Positions 6,790 to 55,858 of a stretch of DNA of 64,000 nt are shown one piece after another. The notes beneath the pieces are model-generated. The model was given only the letters and a program-made list of their open reading frames with translations, did no database searches and was not told where the DNA came from. Location: contig JAWPMS010000001.1 in NCBI GenBank assembly GCA_033344795.1, forward strand, positions 1,158,992 to 1,222,991, written 5' to 3'. This DNA is from Acidimicrobiia bacterium (lineage in GTDB: Bacteria; Actinomycetota; Acidimicrobiia; Acidimicrobiales; SHLQ01). The first letter of the stretch is position 1. Each line of letters opens with the position of its first letter. The translations under genes and the position numbers were made by a program.

Positions 6790-8748
6790 CTAGATGTCCA
6801 GGAAGCGAACGTCTTTGGCGTTCGTCTGGATGAAGTGTTTGCGGCGAGACACGTCCTCGCCCATCAACGTGCTGAAGACCTCGTCGGCCATTGCTGCGGT
6901 TTCGACCGACACCTGCAGGAGGGTTCGGTCGCCAGGGTTCATCGTGGTTTCGGCGAGTTCCTGCCACTGCATCTCGCCAAGGCCCTTCAGACGCTGAAAG
7001 TCCTTCTTGTGGTTCGGGTGTTCCTCGAGCCAGCTGTCCTTCTCGCGATCATCCTTGAGATAGACCTTGCCTTTGCCAACGTTGGTCGAATAGAGCGGCG
7101 GCTGGGCGATGTAGATGTGGTTGTTCTCGACGAGCTCGCGCATCTGGCGGAAGAAGAAGGTGAGCAGCAACGTACGGATGTGACTGCCATCGACATCGGC
7201 ATCAGCCAACAAGATGATCTTGTGGTAGCGGATCTTGCTGAGATCGAACTCGTCGCCGATACCCGCACCGATCGCTTGGATGAGCGTCTGCACTTCGAGG
7301 TTTTTCAACATCTTGTCGAGGCGAGCGCGCTCGACGTTGAGAATCTTGCCTCTGATGGGCAGGATCGCCATCGTTCGCGGATCGCGCGCCTGGATAGCGG
7401 ACCCACCAGCGGAGTCGCCCTCGACGATGAACAGCTCTCGTTCTCTCGGGTCCTTCGATGAGCAATCCTTGAGCTTCTCGGGCATGCCAGCGCCGTCGAG
7501 CGCTGTCTTGTTGCGAATCGTGTCTCTCGCTGCACGAGCGGCCTCACGTGCTCGCTGTGCGGCTATCGACTTGTGGATGATGAGCTTGCCCTCAGCGGGG
7601 TTCTCCTCGAGCCATTCGGCCAGCTTTTCGTTCGTGGCCTTCTCGACCATCGACCGGACCGACACGTTGCCGAGTTTGTCCTTGGTCTGCCCCTCGAACT
7701 GTGGGTCCTGCAGGCGGACGGAGATGATGGCGGTCAGACCTTCACGAACATCGTCTCCGGAAAGATCCTCGGAGTCCTTCAGCAGGTTCTTGTCTTTTCC
7801 GTACTTGTTGATCGTTCGAGTGAGCGCCGAGCGGAACCCGGTCTCGTGCATACCGCCGCCGCCGGTGGTGATGCCGTTCGCGAAGCTGTGCAAACCATCG
7901 GCGTTGAAGCCGGTGTTCCACTGGAATGCGATTTCGACCTCTTGGGTCTCTTCGGCCACCTCGTAGTAGCCAACCTTGGCGAACAACGCTTCCTTCGACT
8001 GGTTGACGTGGCGCACGAAATCTTTGATGCCGCCCTCGTAGTGGAACTCGATCCAACCGTCTTCGCCCGCATCCGCGTGCACCTCGGTCCGACGCAGATC
8101 CTGGAAACGAATTCGCAAGCCACGATTGAGAAACGCCATCATCTGGAAACGATCGAGGAGGGTCTGGGCCCGGAACTCGGTCTCTTCGAAGATGGTGTCG
8201 TCGGGCCAGAAACGAACGGTCGTGCCCGTGCGGTCGTCGGGAGAGTCGCCGCGCACCTCGAGCTTGGTTTTGACCGCTCCGCCGTCTGCGAAGTCCATGT
8301 AGTGATGCTTGCCTTCGCGATCGATCTGTACTTCGACCTTCTTGCTCAGCGCGTTGACGACGGAGATACCCACGCCGTGCAGGCCGCCGGAGACTTTGTA
8401 TCCGCCGCCACCGAACTTGCCGCCAGCGTGCAGAACGGTCATGACGACCTCGGCTGCCGACATTCCTTCGTACTTGGGATGTTCGCCGGTGGGAATCCCA
8501 CGACCGTCATCTCGGACCTCGACCGAATCGTCGGGGTGCACGATGACTTCAATTGCGCTGCAATACCCCGCCATCGCCTCATCGACGGAGTTGTCGACCA
8601 CTTCGTATACGAGGTGGTGAAGACCGGTCGGCCCGGTCGATCCGATGTACATGCCTGGGCGCTTGCGCACAGCCTCGAGGCCCTCGAGAACCGTGATGTT
8701 TTCTGCACCGTAGGAGTTCGTGTCGTCGCTCAACGCGTGACCTTTCAC
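6790..8748 (-). CDS. gyrB: DNA gyrase subunit B
   Basis: 652 aa; GLEAVRKRPGMYIGS, GGLHGVG, EGDSAGG and PLKGKILNVE-like motifs; GTG start, a TTG a few codons later is an alternative. Confidence 0.97.
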   Translation of the reverse strand: MKGHALSDDTNSYGAENITVLEGLEAVRKRPGMYIGSTGPTGLHHLVYEVVDNSVDEAMAGYCSAIEVIVHPDDSVEVRDDGRGIPTGEHPKYEGMSAAEVVMTVLHAGGKFGGGGYKVSGGLHGVGISVVNALSKKVEVQIDREGKHHYMDFADGGAVKTKLEVRGDSPDDRTGTTVRFWPDDTIFEETEFRAQTLLDRFQMMAFLNRGLRIRFQDLRRTEVHADAGEDGWIEFHYEGGIKDFVRHVNQSKEALFAKVGYYEVAEETQEVEIAFQWNTGFNADGLHSFANGITTGGGGMHETGFRSALTRTINKYGKDKNLLKDSEDLSGDDVREGLTAIISVRLQDPQFEGQTKDKLGNVSVRSMVEKATNEKLAEWLEENPAEGKLIIHKSIAAQRAREAARAARDTIRNKTALDGAGMPEKLKDCSSKDPRERELFIVEGDSAGGSAIQARDPRTMAILPIRGKILNVERARLDKMLKNLEVQTLIQAIGAGIGDEFDLSKIRYHKIILLADADVDGSHIRTLLLTFFFRQMRELVENNHIYIAQPPLYSTNVGKGKVYLKDDREKDSWLEEHPNHKKDFQRLKGLGEMQWQELAETTMNPGDRTLLQVSVETAAMADEVFSTLMGEDVSRRKHFIQTNAKDVRFLDI

Positions 8749-15982: not shown

Positions 15983-16039
15983 CCCGCAGTTGGTCTCCAA
16001 GTACTGGTCCCAAGTGGTTCCGGTGCTGTAGGTGCACAG

Positions 16040-16272
16040 CTTCGCCCTCCCCGTTGCGCATCGCTTCGCTCGCTTCACTAGAAGTCGGGCTGCGCTGCAC
16101 CCCTACATCTCCGACTCTCCTACGTTCCACCATTCGGCTTCCCACCGGGTCGACTGGGCAGCCTTCCGCTGAGTTGGGTTGCAGGTCGGCGGCAAGACTG
16201 GGGCCGTTCCGGGATGGGTGGTGCGGCGTAGTCCGACTTTCAGTGGAGCGAAGCGGAACGGGGAGGACGAAG
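16040..16272. repeat. Long imperfect palindrome (~233 bp hairpin-forming element) between convergent genes
   Basis: Left arm CTTCGCCCTCCCCGTT...GCTTCGCTC...AGAAGTCGGGCTGCGCTGCACC pairs with right arm GGTGCGGCGTAGTCCGACTTT...GAGCGAAGC...AACGGGGAGGACGAAG; shares motifs with 52977..53357. Confidence 0.65.
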
Positions 16273-16334
16273 ACGTGCCGCCCGGTCCGGACAGAGGCCT
16301 TGGTCTTGCCGCCGACCGGCTGAGGCGTCCGCAC

Positions 16335-49005: not shown

Positions 49006-49047
49006 CCCCGGTCGCGTTCCGCCATGCGGCCGGGGGCGTTAATTTTT
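49006..49047 (+). terminator. Hairpin between convergent ribA and ior
   Basis: CCCCGGTCGC-(10 nt)-GCGGCCGGGG (one G-U pair) followed by GCGTTAATTTTTGC; the T-run overlaps the ior stop codon. Confidence 0.45.
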
Positions 49048-52000
49048 GCTGTCACCCAAAAGTGCGTCGACCCGAGACAAGAATTGCGTCTGGTACTCCT
49101 TCGCACGACTCCATTTCAGCGCTTCGAAGCCGCGCACGTGATCCGGTAGTTCAGCCAAGCCAATCACCGCGTCAACCTCGACCGGTCGGCTCGACGCAAG
49201 CGCGTCGCACATGGCCTCGATGCCACCCTCGTACTCGTCGATCAGGACTCGCTCCAACCTCCGCAAGGGAGCGCGGCCGAATGGATCGAACCTCGTACCA
49301 CGAAGACCCTTGGATCTTGCAAGGGCAACGAACATCGGCCGCGACGTTGACCCGAATCGCAGCTTGCGATCGAGTCCGAGTGCCGAGAGTGCAGGCGGAT
49401 GAAGATGCCACTTCACCGTCGATTCGTTTGCACCCGTTATGCGTTTTGCCGCTTGCATTCCGTCGGGGCGCAGCATCAACCGAGCCACCTCGTACTCATC
49501 CTTGTAGGTCAGCAACTTGTGAAACCCGCGCGCCACCGCCATCGCCAATCCAATGCCGCCCACCGTGAAGGCGCGCTCGACGAGACGGACGAGACGCTCT
49601 CCCTGCGCGACGTCTTGATGCGCAACCGCATCACCGGTGAGCATCTCCAACTCGAGTCGCTCGCTGGACGGAAGCTCGAGATGCGCAATCGCCGTCCTCA
49701 GGTTCTCCGGAATCGGATCCCGGTCGACCGAGGGCATCTCGCTCACCTCCAGAAGCGCGTAGACATCGTCGCGTGCGTGCCACAATCGACGACCCCACTC
49801 GAGTGCCAATTCGTTGGCCTCGACAGCCACTCCGTTCAGCTCGATCGCTTGCCGTACAGCATCCAGTTCGAGCGGGATTGCGCCCGACTGGAGCGCAGCT
49901 CCGAGAAGCAACATGTTGGCCGTCGCCGGCGTTCCCGTCAGTCCGTCAGCGAGAGCGGTCGCACCGATCGTGAATGGCGGCTGGCCCGTCTCCGCAGTGA
50001 AGCGATCCGAGAGCACGTTGTCCGCTGGGGTCTCGATCGTTGGATTGGTGACCTGGCGTCCCGTGGGGGTTCCGGTGCTCGAGGCGAAGACCTGCGTTCC
50101 AGCTCGCATACCCGCTAGGGCACTGCCGCTGACGCCCACGAGTCGATCGAATGCCAAGGCGACGTCGATCTGACGTTCGCCAGGCGCGTTCGTTCGATTT
50201 TTCCTTGCTGCCTCGGTCGACTGTGTGACGATCGTGAGATCGCTGATGACGGGACCGGCCTTCTGGGAAAGGCCGGTCTGGTCGAGGCCAAGAGCGGTGA
50301 AGCCCGAGATCGTGGCCGCAGTGCCTATCACCTGGGCCACCGTCACGACCCCGGTGCCGCCGATACCCGCGAGTCGCAACACCGTCGTCTCGATGGTCGG
50401 ATCGGGCTCCGGTACAGAAATGATCGTCGGGTCGGGCAACGCGCTGCCGGCGATCGAACCGACCGCATCGTCCTCCACATCGACGGTCATGAAGGCTGGG
50501 CAATCACCCTGCAGGCATGAGAGGTCGAGATTGCAACTGGCCTGATCAATCGTGGTCTTTCGGCCAAGTGGTGTTTCGACCGGCTGCACCGACAAACAAC
50601 TGCTCACATCGCCACAATCACCGCAGCCCTCACATATCCGGTGGTTGATCACCACCCGAGTCTTGGGCGTATCGAGCGTCTTGCGCTTTCTTGCGCGACG
50701 AACCTCCGCCGCACAGTCCTGGTCATGTATGAGCACGGTGACGCCCGGAATGATCGCCAATTCTCGTTGCACTTCGAGAATCTTGGTCCGGTCGTGGACG
50801 GTCACTCCGCCTGGCAGCGAGACTCGACGATACGAATCCACGTCGTCGGTGGTGATCGAGACCTTCTTGACGCCGTGCTCGAGCAGAATCGACGCCAATG
50901 ACGCTGGTTGGACCCGGTGAGAGGTTTCCTGCCCACCGGTCATCGCCACGGTGTGGTTGTACAAGATCTTGAATGTGACGTTCGCACCAGCCCCAATGGC
51001 GGCTTGGACAGCGAGTTGCCCGGAGTGAAAGTACGTGCCGTCGCCGAAGTTCTGAAAGACGTGTGTGGTGTCGACGAAACGTTCCATGCCCAGCCACTGC
51101 GCACCTTCATTGCCCATGGCGGTGATGCCGATGCTGTCGCCGACTCGCTCCTCATCCATCAAGAGCGTCATTCCGTGGCATCCAGTTCCCATACCGACCA
51201 CGCTCCCTTCTGGCACCTTCGTCCCCCAGTTGTGGGGGCAGCCCGAACAAAAGAACGGCGCTCGTTGCACCGCCAGTGGGATACGGGTTGGCTTCTTCGG
51301 TGGTTCGGGGGCGAGGCGATCGCCGAGCCTTTTCTCGAGCCGAGAGCGCAGCGCTTGAATGATGTGATCAGCGTCGAGACGACCGTATGACTGCAGCAAC
51401 TGCACGCCCTCGTTGTCGGTCTTGCCAACGACCCGTGGTCGCATCGACGTCGGGTACAGGGCATCTCGAACCAAACGTTCGAGCGTTGGATTCTTCTCTT
51501 CAATGACGAAGATCTCTTCGAGACCATTGGCGAAGTGCACGATCGACTGGGTATCGAACGGAATCGGCATGCGCAGATTGAGCAACCGAATCCCAGCTCG
51601 AGAGATGTCATCCAGGGACGAAAGCCCCAAACGACGCAGCGCTTCGCGCACTTCACCAAACGTGAAGCCCGTCGCCACTATCCCAATCCATGCATCCGAG
51701 GGGTTCGACGGGGTCTGGTTGAGTTTGTTCTCAACCCCGTACCGAAGGGCGAGTGCACTACGAATCTCATGGAACTCTCGTTCAACTTCGACCATCCTTG
51801 GCCCAAGAAATTGCGCCGACGGCTTCGAACGCCAGACCTGGCCTTCGACGATCTGTTGCGGGATCACCGGCTCTGCGTGAAGTACGGGAAGGTGGACGGT
51901 TGCGGTCCCATCAGCCACGGCTGTGACGACCTTCAGCGCAGACCACAGACCGGTGGCACGTGACATTGCAATGCCGTGGAGTCCTAGCTCCAAACACTCC

Positions 52001-52554
52001 GCCGGGTCTCTCGGATACAGAATCGGCATGTGTAGATCCACCAGGGCGGCGTCCGACGACGATGGCATGGTCGATGACTTCGCAGACGGATCGTCGCCAA
52101 CCAGCGCCAGCGCTCCTCCAAGGGCGCTCGATCCGGCAAACACACCATGTCGCAACGCGTCAGTCGCGCGATCGAGACCCGGCGCCTTGCCGTACCAAAT
52201 GCCGACGATTCCGTCGTACTGCACGTCCGGCCGCTCCGCGGCCAGCTGTGAACCCATCACCGCACTCGCGCCCAGCTCCTCGTTCACGGCGGGAAGATGC
52301 TCGATAGCGAACTCGCCCCCCATCGTCTTCAACATTCTCGCCATCTCGAGATCGAATCCCCCGAGTGGAGAACCGGGATATCCCGAGACGAAGGCCGCCG
52401 TGTTGAGCCCGACGGCGCGGTCCCGTCGCAACTGTTCGCTGGGGATTCTCGCCAGCGCCTGAACACCTGACAGGAACACCGAGCCTTCGGCCGCCAAGTA
52501 CCGATCACTCAGTGAGTACTCACGTGATACATCTGACGTACGATTTATACCCAT
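49039..52554 (-). CDS. Indolepyruvate ferredoxin oxidoreductase family protein (fused alpha/beta)
   Basis: 1171 aa; YSLSDRYLAAEGSVFLSGVQALAR N-terminus, TPP-binding region, CxxCxxCxxxC ferredoxin-type clusters. Confidence 0.92.
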   Translation of the reverse strand: MGINRTSDVSREYSLSDRYLAAEGSVFLSGVQALARIPSEQLRRDRAVGLNTAAFVSGYPGSPLGGFDLEMARMLKTMGGEFAIEHLPAVNEELGASAVMGSQLAAERPDVQYDGIVGIWYGKAPGLDRATDALRHGVFAGSSALGGALALVGDDPSAKSSTMPSSSDAALVDLHMPILYPRDPAECLELGLHGIAMSRATGLWSALKVVTAVADGTATVHLPVLHAEPVIPQQIVEGQVWRSKPSAQFLGPRMVEVEREFHEIRSALALRYGVENKLNQTPSNPSDAWIGIVATGFTFGEVREALRRLGLSSLDDISRAGIRLLNLRMPIPFDTQSIVHFANGLEEIFVIEEKNPTLERLVRDALYPTSMRPRVVGKTDNEGVQLLQSYGRLDADHIIQALRSRLEKRLGDRLAPEPPKKPTRIPLAVQRAPFFCSGCPHNWGTKVPEGSVVGMGTGCHGMTLLMDEERVGDSIGITAMGNEGAQWLGMERFVDTTHVFQNFGDGTYFHSGQLAVQAAIGAGANVTFKILYNHTVAMTGGQETSHRVQPASLASILLEHGVKKVSITTDDVDSYRRVSLPGGVTVHDRTKILEVQRELAIIPGVTVLIHDQDCAAEVRRARKRKTLDTPKTRVVINHRICEGCGDCGDVSSCLSVQPVETPLGRKTTIDQASCNLDLSCLQGDCPAFMTVDVEDDAVGSIAGSALPDPTIISVPEPDPTIETTVLRLAGIGGTGVVTVAQVIGTAATISGFTALGLDQTGLSQKAGPVISDLTIVTQSTEAARKNRTNAPGERQIDVALAFDRLVGVSGSALAGMRAGTQVFASSTGTPTGRQVTNPTIETPADNVLSDRFTAETGQPPFTIGATALADGLTGTPATANMLLLGAALQSGAIPLELDAVRQAIELNGVAVEANELALEWGRRLWHARDDVYALLEVSEMPSVDRDPIPENLRTAIAHLELPSSERLELEMLTGDAVAHQDVAQGERLVRLVERAFTVGGIGLAMAVARGFHKLLTYKDEYEVARLMLRPDGMQAAKRITGANESTVKWHLHPPALSALGLDRKLRFGSTSRPMFVALARSKGLRGTRFDPFGRAPLRRLERVLIDEYEGGIEAMCDALASSRPVEVDAVIGLAELPDHVRGFEALKWSRAKEYQTQFLSRVDALLGDSKN

Positions 52555-52610: not shown

Positions 52611-52835
52611 TCAACCAGACAGGAGCGTCGCAAGCGCCCATACGGTCATGATCAAGCCGATGCCGATGAACACCAACGTGCGAACGAGCGGTGGGCGCTC
52701 GAGGTCATTCTCGTCGAGATCGGGTGGCGGCTTCACAAGCGCAAAGCCGGGCCCGAGAACGAGTGCAGCGCCAAAGGCCAATGCCAGAAGAGGCAGGAAG
52801 TTGTCTCCAAGGAGCTCGACTTGGGCAAGCAGCAC
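52611..52835 (-). CDS. Small two-TM membrane protein
   Basis: 74 aa; GTG start with GAGAGGGA SD 4-5 nt upstream; two hydrophobic helices. Confidence 0.5.
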   Translation of the reverse strand: MLLAQVELLGDNFLPLLALAFGAALVLGPGFALVKPPPDLDENDLERPPLVRTLVFIGIGLIMTVWALATLLSG

Positions 52836-53111
52836 AATTCCCTCTCAAGATGTTCGAGATCGGTCCCGATGCTACTTGTGTCTGGTGATTCGCCCTCGCT
52901 GGACACGCAGTGGGATTCAGGGTGGGAGTCACGACTCCCTCCACGCATCACGCCAGAACTTCGGTCCTGGTCCGTGGCTTCCGCCCTCCCACGTTCCGAT
53001 CACACCTCGACACTTCCGGTCGAGATCCGGCGAAGCCGAGTTGGTCGCTCCGCGAGCTCCCGTGCGCGCTGGCAGCTCCTCGTGCGCATAGACACACATG
53101 TGACGACCGAC

Positions 53112-53157
53112 ACAAGGGGTCTGACCCCTTTTTAGAAAAAGGGGTCAGACCCCTTGT
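53112..53157. terminator. Perfect 22+22 bp palindrome forming two convergent terminator-like units (GGGGTCTGACCCC + T5 on each strand)
   Basis: ACAAGGGGTCTGACCCCTTTTT-AG-AAAAAGGGGTCAGACCCCTTGT seen directly; 350 nt downstream of the dnaB stop. Confidence 0.6.
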
Positions 53158-53377
53158 TAGCTCGTGGGCTAGTGCCTACGCGGCAGCGGAGCTGGACTCA
53201 GCTGAACGCGTGAGCCTGTATGCGCACAGTCACCCGCCAGCACCGGACTGAGGAGGGACGACGAACGGCTGGCGGCCTCAAGGAATCCGCAGGATTCCCG
53301 CAGTCCGCAGAGCACACCGAGCCGAAGGCGAATGTGCGATTGCCGGGAGCGAAGCGGGAAACAGGGACCAGCGACCA

Positions 53378-53457
53378 GGCACGGCCTCCGGCAGGGCTCT
53401 TGTAACGAGCTAGTTCGAAGCTGCGGAGCCGGTTCGAGCGGGCACGGCCTCCGGCAG
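53378..53457. repeat. 17-bp direct repeat GGCACGGCCTCCGGCAG x2 (63-bp period)
   Basis: Copies at 53378..53394 and 53441..53457, verified against the ORF-track frames. Confidence 0.85.
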
Positions 53458-53503
53458 TCCACCGAGCATCGAGGAGCCGACAGGCGACGGATTGCGACCG
53501 CGG

Positions 53504-54925
53504 CTACAACCCAGGGTTTCTCGCCATGTTCGCGAAGCGGGTGTATTGGGGCAGGAAGGCCAGCCGGATGGTGTCGGTTGGGCCGTTTCGATGTTTTGCG
53601 ATGATGACTTCGGCGATGCCCGCGTCCGGGCTCTCCGCGTTGTACACCTCGTCGCGATACAGGAACATCACCACGTCGGCATCCTGCTCGATGGCCCCAG
53701 ACTCTCGCAGGTCGGACAACATTGGTCGTTTGTCCTGGCGAGACTCGAGCGTTCGTGACAGCTGCGACAAACCAACGACGGGCACTTCGAGCTCACGGGC
53801 CAGGATCTTGAGATTTCGAGAGATCTCCGAAATCTCGACCTGGCGACTCTCCGCTCCCGACCGACCGGTCATCAGCTGGATGTAGTCGACGACGATGAGC
53901 CCCAAGTCGCCCACCTGAGATTTCAGACGCCGCGCACGGCCACGAATGTCCATCACCGTCAGGCCCGGATTGTCATCGATCCAGATGGGGGCCTCCGAGA
54001 GGCGTCCGACACCGGAACTGATCTTGGTCCAGTCGCTTTCGTCGAGCTTGCCGTCGCGCATCTTCATGGCGTCGACACGCGATTCTGAACACAACATGCG
54101 CTGTGACAGTTCGAGCTGGCCCATCTCGAGCGAGAAGACGAGCGTGGGCTTGTTCGCCTCGATCGCCGCGTGCGCTGCGAGGTTCAACGCAAAACTCGTC
54201 TTGCCCATGGCAGGTCGCGCACCGACGACGATCAACGCGTTTGGTTGCAGGCCGGACAAAAGTTCATCGAGATCGACGAAGCCCGTTGGTGTACCGGTGA
54301 TTCCCTCGCCGCGCTCATAGAGCATCTCGAGTCGATCGAGGCTCTGCTCGATCAACGAACGCATGTCGGCCATCGTGTCGGACGCACGACCCTGGGCCAC
54401 TTCGAACACCAGGTGTTCAGCTTGATCGACAGCCTTGACGACATCTTCGGGTCGGTCGTAGGCAATCTCGGCAATCTCGTTGCCTACGCTGATCAGACGA
54501 CGAAGAAGAGCGTTCTCGCGAACGATCTCGGCGTACTTCTTCGCTCCCGTGATCGCCGGTGCCTGTGCCTGCAGATCCATGAGGGTCGAAGATCCGCCCA
54601 TGCCTTCGAGCAAACCGCTGCGGTCGAGCAGATCTGACACGGTGACGACGTCGGCCTCATCGCCGGCGCCATACAACGTGGTGATGGCCTCGAAGATGTG
54701 TTGATGTGCCGGTCGGTAGAAATGTGCGGGCTCGACAACCTCGAGGGCGCTCGCGATTGCATCGCGCGACAAGAGCAGGACACCGATGAGCGATTGCTCC
54801 ACCTGGATGTTGTGCGGCGGCGTGCGACCGGTCTTTGCTTCGATGACCCGAGCAGGTCCATCGTCGAAGTCTTCATACGGAGGCGCGTCTGCGTAGGCGT
54901 CAGCCATCAGTTGACGGCCAATCAA
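53504..54925 (-). CDS. dnaB: Replicative DNA helicase DnaB
   Basis: 473 aa; PPHNIQVEQSLIGVLL, Walker A GARPAMGKTSFAL, IVVDYIQLM; no intein; TTG start 54925 or ATG 54907. Confidence 0.95.
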   Translation of the reverse strand: MIGRQLMADAYADAPPYEDFDDGPARVIEAKTGRTPPHNIQVEQSLIGVLLLSRDAIASALEVVEPAHFYRPAHQHIFEAITTLYGAGDEADVVTVSDLLDRSGLLEGMGGSSTLMDLQAQAPAITGAKKYAEIVRENALLRRLISVGNEIAEIAYDRPEDVVKAVDQAEHLVFEVAQGRASDTMADMRSLIEQSLDRLEMLYERGEGITGTPTGFVDLDELLSGLQPNALIVVGARPAMGKTSFALNLAAHAAIEANKPTLVFSLEMGQLELSQRMLCSESRVDAMKMRDGKLDESDWTKISSGVGRLSEAPIWIDDNPGLTVMDIRGRARRLKSQVGDLGLIVVDYIQLMTGRSGAESRQVEISEISRNLKILARELEVPVVGLSQLSRTLESRQDKRPMLSDLRESGAIEQDADVVMFLYRDEVYNAESPDAGIAEVIIAKHRNGPTDTIRLAFLPQYTRFANMARNPGL

Positions 54926-54943: not shown

Positions 54944-55858
54944 TCAGTGAGGAGAACTGCACGTCCTCATCGTGACGATGGGGTGTGACAGTGGCACGGC
55001 AGGTCTCGATCGAGACGCTGGCGACCGGTTCTTCGGGAGTCGTTGGCACACCGTCAAGGGTGCCAGGGAATGGTTGTGAGGAACCAGTGGGTAACTGGGG
55101 GAAATCGCGCGGTTTCGCGAGGTTTGTGCTGTGGATGAGCTGTGGACAAGTGCCATGTTGTCCCCAGCTTTCGCACGGGACTGGTGATAAGCGGATGCGC
55201 CGGCTAGCGCAACGACGGCAAAGAGTGAGCCGACGATCGCATCGAGCAAGAAATGATGACCGGTGATGACCACGACGACGACCGTCAGGGCTGGATGCAC
55301 GATGCCGACGAGCCTCACAACAGGCGTGTTCGCCGAACGCCAGAGAGCCCACCCAGCCACCAGAGCCCATGCGACGTGCATCGAGGGCATGGCGGCGAAC
55401 TGATTCGCGGCACCACTACCGGGAATGGCATATGGATTCGGCCCATACATCGTGGAGGCATCAATGATGTCGTCGAGCATGCGGGGTGGTGCGAGGGGAA
55501 ACACCAGGTGCACGACCAGTCCGAGAAAGGTCATCACGACCAAACCGTCGCGTACGACAGGAAAGATCGTCGCTCGATGACGGACGAACATGGCGATCAA
55601 CAAGATGACGGTGACGGGAAAGTGCAACAGGTAGTACGAGTTGGCCAACGTGCCCACCGCCTCACCGAGCAGAGCCTCTTGCATACTTGCTTCGATGCCG
55701 ATCCCGAGCGCACCTTGGAGTGAATCCACCATCTCCGCATTGGCACGGGCAACGTCGACCGACCCGGTCGTGAGCAGGCGAACGACCGAGTATCCCGCCC
55801 ACGCAGTGGACAGAATTGCGACGCTCTTGGCGACCTCTCGAAACAGCTCCTTGTTCAC
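54944..55858 (-). CDS. PAP2-superfamily membrane protein
   Basis: 304 aa; AAMPSMHVAWAL and ITGHHFLLDAIVG motifs; the last ~90 aa are low-complexity and may not be genuine. Confidence 0.65.
   Translation of the reverse strand: MNKELFREVAKSVAILSTAWAGYSVVRLLTTGSVDVARANAEMVDSLQGALGIGIEASMQEALLGEAVGTLANSYYLLHFPVTVILLIAMFVRHRATIFPVVRDGLVVMTFLGLVVHLVFPLAPPRMLDDIIDASTMYGPNPYAIPGSGAANQFAAMPSMHVAWALVAGWALWRSANTPVVRLVGIVHPALTVVVVVITGHHFLLDAIVGSLFAVVALAGASAYHQSRAKAGDNMALVHSSSTAQTSRNRAISPSYPLVPHNHSLAPLTVCQRLPKNRSPASRSRPAVPLSHPIVTMRTCSSPH

Follow-up and report, generated by a model that had tools for sequence, protein, structure and literature searches.

Two likely parts of the gap downstream of dnaB in an Acidimicrobiia bacterium: a conserved structured leader RNA and a variable, palindrome-bearing spacer

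Background

What occupies the 668 bp that follow dnaB in a 64,000-nucleotide stretch of an Acidimicrobiia genome (contig JAWPMS010000001.1; the whole stretch, with a G+C content of 61%, is called the window here)? The gap (52836-53503) separates dnaB from a small open reading frame (ORF) for a 74-amino-acid membrane protein on the same, minus strand. A preliminary description, made from the sequence, treated the gap as a single structured region "centred" on a perfect 46-bp palindrome, and proposed as its content one or two novel small RNAs (sRNAs), nested insertions of the type of miniature inverted-repeat transposable elements (MITEs), or a structure for replication or recombination. Our comparison with related loci places the conserved part in the left-hand 170 nt only, and we consider it likely that the gap is made of two unrelated parts:

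52825-52995, minus strand: conserved structured leader RNA of about 170 nt (covariance model R1, 191 bits, E = 6.5e-50)
52996-53503, no strand assigned: lineage-specific, fast-evolving spacer between the dnaB stop codon and the leader, delimited by comparisons of length, inversion and identity

The leader is the sole part of the gap under clear selection, and the palindrome lies in the spacer.

Results and discussion

Conservation of the leader

The non-coding nature of the gap, as first described, was borne out. Third-position GC periodicity is present in dnaB and in the small ORF and is lacking throughout the 668 nt of 52836-53503, the three longest ORFs of the gap had no match in Pfam, and a search of the gap for tRNA and tmRNA found none. 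A protein-coding gap was therefore rejected on the missing codon periodicity, the lack of Pfam matches and the frame-breaking insertions and deletions (indels) in the alignment of the leader.

Species-representative genomes contributed only distant DnaB loci (66% identity or less), whose gap has no DNA similarity to that of the window and which do not inform on the spacer. Closer relatives were gathered in three ways, namely from DnaB homologues of 82-95% identity, from a pattern scan of metagenome contigs, and from homologues of the small protein; their loci are cited below as L with a number. Blastn against the related loci limited the conservation to 52836 to about 53029. The relatives that were gathered first (DnaB about 90-93% identical) had no conservation at the palindrome or in the dnaB-proximal half of the gap. 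Folding of the whole region gave z-scores of -4.6 (minus strand) and -6.2 (plus strand), to which the palindrome probably contributes much, because it alone accounts for -40 kcal/mol when the region and its shuffles differ by about 30 kcal/mol.

The locus of L110, whose small protein is the most similar to that of the window (95%), runs collinear with it. Over 160 nt the leaders of the two are 100% identical, compared with 93.2% for dnaB and 90.2% for the small ORF. We aligned 14 distinct copies of the leader. In every one, the small ORF follows on the same strand after 0 to about 120 nt, whatever the upstream neighbour, and the leader travels with the small ORF when genes separate it from dnaB (L087, L089) or when dnaB is elsewhere (L111). 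The metagenome scan points in the same direction: 8 of its 14 matches were true copies of the leader, all directly upstream of the small ORF.

Secondary structure of the leader

The predicted structure has four helices (P1-P4), an unpaired junction and a 3' part that reaches the start of the small ORF:

52987-52992, minus strand: 5' strand of P1, GUGGGA, pairing with UCCCAC at 52910-52915; 6 of 6 pairs covary
52972-52986, minus strand: 5' strand of P2, GGGCGGAAGCCACGG, pairing with UCGUGACUCCCACCC at 52920-52934, with three 1x1 mismatches
52953-52970, minus strand: P3 hairpin CCAGGAC-CGAA-GUUCUGG; double changes in 5 of 7 pairs (CAACAC/GUGUUG, CAGUGC/GCACUG)
52935-52951, minus strand: junction strand GUGAUGCGUGGAGGGAG, the last 15 nt of which are GAUGCGUGGAGGGAG
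52878-52906, minus strand: P4 hairpin GUGUC...GACAC with the near-invariant loop motif GAGGGCGAA
52836-52877, minus strand: 3' part with the linker AGUAGCAUCGG, a variable hairpin and the Shine-Dalgarno-like GAGAGGGAA before the GTG start at 52835
52844-52849, minus strand: invariant CUUGAG within the 3' part

When RNAalifold was applied to an unfitted MAFFT alignment, it found the long helix GGGCGGAAGCCACGG/UCGUGACUCCCACCC enclosing a hairpin, that is P2 and P3, with double changes in 10 of the 27 predicted pairs. Covariance model R1 was then built with P1-P4, and the alignment was refitted to R1 for the covariation counts. The refitted alignment has 90.2% of its cells paired and double changes in 19 of 33 pairs; none of 500 column shuffles reached these values, and sliding the partners by 1-3 columns lowered the pairing to 38-45%. 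RNAalifold on the refitted alignment returned the same four helices. P1 varies in the raw sequences as GUAGGA/UCCUAC (L100), AUAG-AA/UUCCUAU (L087), CAGGU/ACCUG (L089) and GCGGGCG/CGCCCGC (L111), P2 has double changes in 5 of 12 pairs (for example, UUGCGG/UCGCAA in L083), and the stem of P4 occurs as GUGUCUGG/CCAGACAC, GUCCGG/CCGGAC, ACAGCGA/UCGCUGU and GUGUCGGUGG/CCACCGACAC. Some stretches hardly vary: the junction sequence GAUGCGUGGAGGGAG is exact in 13 of the 14 copies, the remaining one (L111) carrying one extra U within it, and GGGCGA (in the P4 loop), UCGG and CUUGAG are identical in all 14.

The structure belongs to the minus strand, where the G-U pairs and the score of 191 bits are found; matches on the opposite strand reached only 11-12 bits, at three related loci. 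Indels among the members are not multiples of three, and hence the leader does not code for protein. A search with the 4227 families of Rfam 15 gave only a tRNA in the whole window, and no match on the leader in 52700-53600 even at E <= 10; the best match in that interval fell on the palindrome, where a plastid 3'UTR hairpin model scored 28 bits for a threshold of 53. The same search of four homologous loci found only FMN riboswitches elsewhere in those loci, which served as a positive control. From this body of evidence we conclude that the leader is, with high probability, a functional structured RNA. The early suggestion of novel sRNAs was thus right in that the gap holds a structured RNA absent from Rfam, but it had not singled out the minus-strand leader, and a plus-strand sRNA found no support (see below).

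Two further observations concern the surroundings of the leader. The FMN riboswitches (97 bits; L083 9684-9833, L087 10655-10815) stand before a riboflavin operon; in several relatives this operon is a neighbour of the pair of dnaB and small ORF. In several deposited assemblies, gene calls lie over or beside the leader and look like annotation artefacts: a 99-amino-acid version of the small protein with its GTG start inside P4 (L116-L118, 3001-3300), a 174-amino-acid ORF over or directly upstream of the leader (L082, 6683-7207), and a 76-amino-acid reverse-strand ORF in a like position (L110, 2737-2967).

The small membrane-protein family

The 74-amino-acid protein, in which two membrane helices were judged by eye, matches a deposited "hypothetical protein [Acidimicrobiia bacterium]" at 100% identity and belongs to no Pfam or NCBIfam family. 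Its family has 316 representatives at E <= 0.001, 159 of them at E <= 1e-10, among 1.84 billion sequences. By tblastn, the small ORF lies downstream of dnaB in many Acidimicrobiia; a gene of about 70 codons comes just after dnaB in L003, L004, L017, L019 and L020, often abutting or overlapping the stop codon, and several distant Acidimicrobiia have a dnaB-small ORF gap of about 0-50 nt, which has no room for the leader. Model R1 found no leader in the more distant Acidimicrobiia loci and confined it to one subclade. The leader is therefore an addition, made in one subclade, to an older dnaB-small ORF pair. As a side observation, the DnaB of L111 (4168-6180) carries an intein (Pfam Intein_splicing).

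Possible function of the leader

The constant association with one gene makes it fairly probable that the leader acts in cis on the small ORF. For the junction strand, ACUCCCACC is an alternative local partner (95.5% of cells), and the GAUGC of this strand can pair with GCAUC at 52868-52872 (92.9%). These pairings are mutually exclusive with P1/P2, and both kinds are kept in all members. Our working model is a folded 5' RNA that would control the membrane-protein gene in cis: the C-rich strand ACUCCCACCC would have two alternative partners, the 5' G-rich strand (in P2) and the invariant GGAGGGAGU, and a ligand or a protein that stabilised one of the two folds would change the access to the ribosome-binding region CUUGAGAGGGAA, giving a putative translational switch.

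What might set the switch is a more tentative matter. The reading to which we give somewhat more weight, while still doubting it, is that the leader is no ligand sensor, but a binding platform for a protein or the 30S subunit, or else a processing or stability element of a dnaB-small ORF co-transcript. This reading would give weight to the repeated G-rich motifs (GAGGGCGGAAG, GGAGGGAG, GAGGGCGAA and GAGAGGGAA); there are four motifs of the GAGGG type, two of them nearly identical (GAGGGCGRAA). The leader of L092 begins about 10 nt past the dnaB stop, so that co-transcription is likely there, and the small ORF abuts or overlaps dnaB in distant relatives. The multi-helix fold, the invariant junction and the single gene family, however, fit a platform and a riboswitch alike. 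That the leader senses a small molecule or an ion, as a riboswitch, is possible but rather unlikely in our estimate, and the same tentative standing applies to the proposal that it founds a new riboswitch class, in which the GAUGCGUGGAGGGAG junction and the GAGGGCGAA loop would form the pocket for an ion or small metabolite and the RNA would control this membrane-protein family, whose gene is linked to that of the replicative helicase throughout Acidimicrobiia. A search of the literature joining Acidimicrobiia and riboswitch found nothing relevant.

Whichever of these holds, the leader is a structured RNA absent from Rfam, with a constraint above that of the surrounding protein-coding genes, in a poorly studied and uncultured class of actinobacteria. 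It gives a testable handle on the function of the 74-amino-acid protein and on its retention beside dnaB, and if a ligand were found, it would add a riboswitch class.

Probable turnover of the spacer

In the window, 511 nt separate the stop codon of dnaB from the first helix of the conserved segment. The same interval measures about 10 nt (L092), 52 nt (L097) and 55 nt (L096) in three relatives with 82-85% nucleotide identity to the window in dnaB, and about 567 nt in L093 and L094, which are two independent assemblies. The spacer of L110 is 75.2% identical to that of the window over 435 alignable positions, with 140 gap columns. For the same pair, identity at third codon positions is 82.7% (dnaB) and 77% (small ORF), so that the spacer changes at least as fast as silent sites. 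We regard the 511 nt beside dnaB as probably unstable and essentially unconstrained spacer DNA. The features of the spacer that bear on its history, apart from the palindrome, are as follows:

53006-53024, minus strand: P0 hairpin CUCGAC-CGGAAGU-GUCGAG, just upstream of the leader
53082-53092, minus strand: motif M (TCTATGCGCAC), oriented towards the leader, which lies about 95 nt downstream
53217-53227, plus strand: inverted second copy of motif M (TGTATGCGCAC)
53279-53403, no strand assigned: 125-nt segment missing in L110; the segment includes one of the two direct-repeat copies along with the GAATCC hairpin and the CCGCAG repeats

The small repeats that had been described were for the most part confirmed. 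The GAATCC-GCA-GGATTC hairpin and three copies of CCGCAG are present at their places, and the direct repeat is exact over 17 nt and 91% identical over 23 nt (53372-53394 and 53435-53457). The flanking dyad symmetry also exists, with 74% complementarity between 53068-53090 and 53219-53241; we explain it by the two inverted copies of motif M. By contrast, the supposed long-range pairing of TAGCTCGT with ACGAGCTA is a single pair of 8-mers, of which about three are expected in 668 nt by our own estimate. The 11-mer TSTATRCRCAC of motif M occurs as the two inverted copies and nowhere else in the window; for the form TSTATGCGCAC, 0.01 occurrences are expected. Orthologous copies lie upstream of the leader in L100, L107, L109 and L110, and the divergent pair is found again in L093, L107 and L110. 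Motif M is possibly a promoter or an operator; a sigma-70 scan found no promoter in the spacer, and the motif is unlike the actinobacterial -10 element. P0 adjoins the leader in the window, L110, L087 and L095.

The arrangement of these pieces differs among relatives. In L093/L094 the leader-side segment of the window (53133-52997, P0 included) sits inverted beside the dnaB stop, the dnaB-side segment (53470-53235) sits inverted beside the leader, and a middle piece (53279-53180) keeps its orientation, which fits an inversion of the whole spacer with a nested rearrangement. The more distant L087, L095 and L100 have the arrangement of the window, with P0 (in L100 also motif M) beside the leader, and because they share it the orientation in the window is probably the ancestral one. 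P0 is inverted beside the dnaB stop in L093, and L097 looks like a deletion derivative which keeps a truncated half of P0 beside that stop. At the position of the palindrome, L110 has three tandem 41-nt repeats and only the remnant GGGGTCAGACC. The spacer has probably grown and been reshuffled through small duplications, deletions and inversions between short inverted repeats. A dnaB-proximal arm derived as a degenerate inverted copy of the leader-side arm was considered and rejected (local alignment score 32 against 27 +/- 4.5).

Short-read contigs of the same species end inside the spacer at 53408, 53278, 53144, 53030 and 53021. The ends at 53408 (L001) and 53278 (L107/L108), from other samples, are near the borders of the 125-nt indel, the end at 53144 is inside the palindrome, and those at 53030 and 53021 are beside P0. 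Strain-level indels, together with a palindrome longer than the k-mer, would produce such breaks.

Duplications upstream of the leader were also seen in the relatives, and they differ from one to another: 3 x 41 nt in L110 (2586-2690), a unit of about 100 nt repeated about 150 nt apart in L087 (about 7604-7860), and a repeat of about 50 nt in L113 (about 2720-2830). The region is a local duplication hot spot. In L100 (7033-8651), the module of motif M, P0, leader and small ORF is opposite in strand to dnaB and convergent with it, a further inversion.

Could the spacer instead consist of non-autonomous MITE-like elements, the palindrome included, which were inserted between dnaB and the leader, with opposite orientations according to lineage? 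We think this improbable, although part of the earlier proposal stands: the window does have extra DNA relative to close relatives, this DNA is inverted in another lineage, and it abounds in small duplications and indels. The presence of the spacer varies among close relatives, and its orientation in L093 is opposite to that in the window. Its ends, examined by eye, carry a short inverted motif (GATCACACGTCG on the left and CGACGATGTGAT on the right in L093; GGTGTGATCGG beside the leader and GCAATCCGTCGCC beside dnaB in the window); these ATCACACGTCG-like motifs are imperfect and about 11 nt long, and as terminal repeats they are only suggestive. Equally suggestive, and also found by eye, are the imperfect 9-nt direct repeats ACTTCCGCC/ACTCCGGCC which flank the insert of L093 relative to L097. 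The hairpin of the palindrome, moreover, is repeated in IMG/VR viral contigs. However, searches of the 64-kb window and of about 1 Mb of related loci, mostly from other taxa, turned up no further copy of any part of the spacer, and motif M and the hairpin are confined to the orthologous site among the loci that were fetched. The seemingly empty site of L097 retains half of P0, so that a deletion fits it better than a clean empty site does, and the part with P0 upstream of the leader is present in the distant L087 and L100 and is therefore ancestral local sequence, not insert. The viral contigs have just a 20-nt hairpin in common with the window. Local turnover of resident DNA, as set out above, remains our reading of the spacer.

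The palindrome and the putative end of the dnaB transcript

The palindrome is perfect, as had been claimed, and is composed of two hairpin units with T5 tracts which face each other, one on each strand:

53112-53157, no strand assigned: perfect 46-bp palindrome, two head-to-head hairpin copies GGGGTCWGACCCC with T5/A5 tracts
53136-53157, minus strand: unit ACAAGGGGUCUGACCCCUUUUU, a stem-loop followed by U5, about 350 nt past the dnaB stop
53112-53133, plus strand: copy of the unit, which would serve no gene and no supported transcript

Two nucleotides separate the 22-nt arms (53112-53133 and 53136-53157), whose complementarity is 100%. The full palindrome folds into a 21-bp hairpin of -40 kcal/mol which has no U-tail, and each half reads AA-GGGGU-CUG-ACCCC-UU and then U's, with 7 bp, a 3-nt loop and -9.3 kcal/mol. 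The sequence GGGGTCWGACCCC has three matches in the window for 0.07 expected, the third of which (37782) is without the flanking A/T tracts. L107, a strain 98% identical to the window, reads ACAAGGGGTCTGACCCCTCTTT-CC-AAAAAGGGGTCAGACCCCCTGT, that is, three substitutions in 46 nt, none of which is compensated across the long stem; both 13-nt hairpins are intact nevertheless. The long palindrome is therefore not what is maintained, and in our reading it arose recently, at the strain level, when a terminator-type unit of hairpin and U-tract was duplicated in inverted orientation.

The minus-strand unit is likely the intrinsic terminator of dnaB, and would, as first described, end its transcript after an untranslated tail of about 350 nt. 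L093 keeps a single copy of the unit (GGGGTCTGACCCCTTTTT) in the direction of dnaB, about 180 nt past the stop. The plus-strand unit may be a by-product that would at most insulate against antisense transcription.

The preliminary description also supposed a plus-strand transcript arising in 52836-53111. An extension of that view takes the palindrome as a functional bidirectional terminator whose plus half ends a novel plus-strand sRNA from this interval, and we hold it to be very improbable. Each half does have a hairpin and a five-T run on its own strand, the palindrome is the only canonical-looking hairpin with a T-run in a simple terminator scan of the 64 kb, and pairs of the same hairpin exist in viral contigs. 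But the plus strand upstream of the 53112-53133 unit is all antisense to the leader and the small ORF, and the supposed source interval is the minus-strand leader with its upstream region, whose fold and R1 score are strand-specific. The scan showed no promoter-like site on the plus strand, L110 has only a degraded form of the plus-strand copy and L093 lacks that copy, and even the T5 of the minus copy reads TCTTT in L107, so that the T-run is not strictly maintained.

Five IMG/VR viral contigs contain the exact 20-mer AAGGGGTCTGACCCCTTTTT, frequently in several copies and in inverted pairs, and a search of cultured phages, tried as another source of the palindrome, gave nothing, so that this origin was rejected. 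The matches between the viral contigs and the window are limited to the hairpin, with no sharing of the flanks, and the 20-mer is absent from the other Acidimicrobiia loci. We take the viral matches as recurrence of a generic bidirectional-terminator sequence. A literature search for the 13-mer of the palindrome found no mention of it. On the viral side, the hairpin AAAAGGGGTCWGACCCCTTTT recurs many times in a few contigs (among L119-L125) of 53-65% G+C, frequently as inverted pairs, for example at 2063-2104 and 3862-3910 in L121 and at 6372-6419 in L125.

A further proposal, an inverton in which a recombinase flips a promoter segment to turn the leader on or off while the double terminator insulates both states, can draw on the occurrence of the segment between the dnaB stop and the leader in both orientations, on the short inverted motifs at its ends and the divergent motif M pair inside, on the breaks of assemblies in the spacer and on the inverted leader-ORF module of L100, but we hold it, too, to be very improbable, as the orientations differ only between lineages (dnaB about 12% divergent in nucleotides) which differ by many indels too, the contig ends match indel borders and the palindrome and not the putative inverted repeats, these repeats are imperfect and about 11 nt long, the closest short-spacer relatives are without the segment altogether, and no recombinase gene was seen adjacent, where none had been looked for.

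Nor did a role in replication find support: 52836-53503 holds no TTGTCCACA-like DnaA box with one mismatch or fewer, and the cumulative GC skew falls monotonically across the region without a turn. We regard the palindrome as being of little consequence in itself; it shows the churn of hairpin-rich spacers and the breakage of short-read assemblies.

Points that weigh against the two-part reading

Several points tell against the reading of a selected leader beside an unconstrained spacer. For the leader, the alignment has only 14 sequences, 6 of them near-identical, and the covariation counts come from an alignment fitted to R1 and so lean towards the model; this is offset by the recovery of P2 and P3 without fitting and by the P1 variants visible in the raw sequences. 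The alternative fold involves invariant bases, which give no covariation signal. The hairpin UCUCGA/UUGAGA over the ribosome-binding site, which overlaps that sequence in most members, is weakly supported (77% paired, one double change), and the start codon lies further downstream in L087, L089, L100 and L111. For the spacer, the label "unconstrained" depends mainly on the comparison with one relative, L110, and since motif M is conserved within it, the spacer may be in part promoter or operator. As for the putative terminator, a consensus terminator scan of the window called 0 sites and did not call the minus-strand hairpin, the stem is modest (-9.3 kcal/mol), and two of the five U's can pair with the upstream AA. 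We infer the promoter, the 5' end and the termination site alike from the sequence.

Neighbouring genes and other features of the window

The genes around the gap are all on the minus strand:

53504-54925, minus strand: dnaB (Pfam DnaB and DnaB_C, E = 2.3e-108)
52611-52835, minus strand: small ORF for the 74-amino-acid membrane protein, starting with GTG at 52835
49039-52554, minus strand: gene of the indolepyruvate-ferredoxin-oxidoreductase family, downstream of dnaB and the small ORF

At 55141-55166, inside a PAP2-family gene upstream of dnaB, a perfect DnaA-box consensus (TTGTCCACA, minus strand) is found 9 nt from a plus-strand copy with one mismatch; the overall count of boxes in the window is at the chance level. 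An apparently intergenic, long imperfect inverted repeat is found at 16034-16101 and 16220-16278. It consists of two arm pairs side by side, of 37 and 32 nt, with 81% complementarity and about 120-170 nt between the arms. The preliminary description held that the gap shares motifs with the palindrome at 16.0-16.3 kb. We found one common 12-mer (E = 2.1) and a marginal local alignment of 43 nt with the spacer, scoring 29 against 22.2 +/- 2.6 for shuffles with a maximum of 35. The 16-kb repeat is a separate hairpin-like element whose resemblance to the dnaB spacer is marginal.

Comparison with known systems

The spacer resembles several known kinds of element in part. Like MITEs and REP/ERIC repeats, it is small, non-coding and rich in inverted repeats, and is present or absent in either orientation at one site; unlike them, it has no extra copies in the window or the fetched loci, its ends and target duplications are unclear, and it is partly ancestral local DNA. 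With invertons of the fimS/hin type it has in common a segment of about 0.5 kb between a gene and its neighbour, short inverted motifs and both orientations, but the difference in orientation is between lineages, no recombinase is linked and the inverted repeats are weak, so that this kinship is unlikely. The palindrome is similar to bidirectional intrinsic terminators in its GC-rich hairpin between an A-tract and a T-tract, which makes a hairpin and U-run readable on both strands. It departs from them in being two complete head-to-head copies in a 46-bp perfect palindrome, between flanking genes of the same strand, 350 nt past the dnaB stop, and unconserved in the closest relatives.

For the leader, the nearest parallels are the leader RNAs and orphan riboswitches upstream of small membrane-protein or exporter genes, such as the fluoride (crcB), guanidine (ykkC-SMR) and Li+/Na+ (nhaA-I) classes. 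Although the leader has no Rfam match, is found in one Acidimicrobiia subclade only and precedes a protein without a described family, it is like these classes in its multi-helix fold with covarying stems and invariant unpaired nucleotides in the junction and loop, in its fixed site 5' of one small membrane-protein family, and in having a 3' part which, in most members, extends into the ribosome-binding region.

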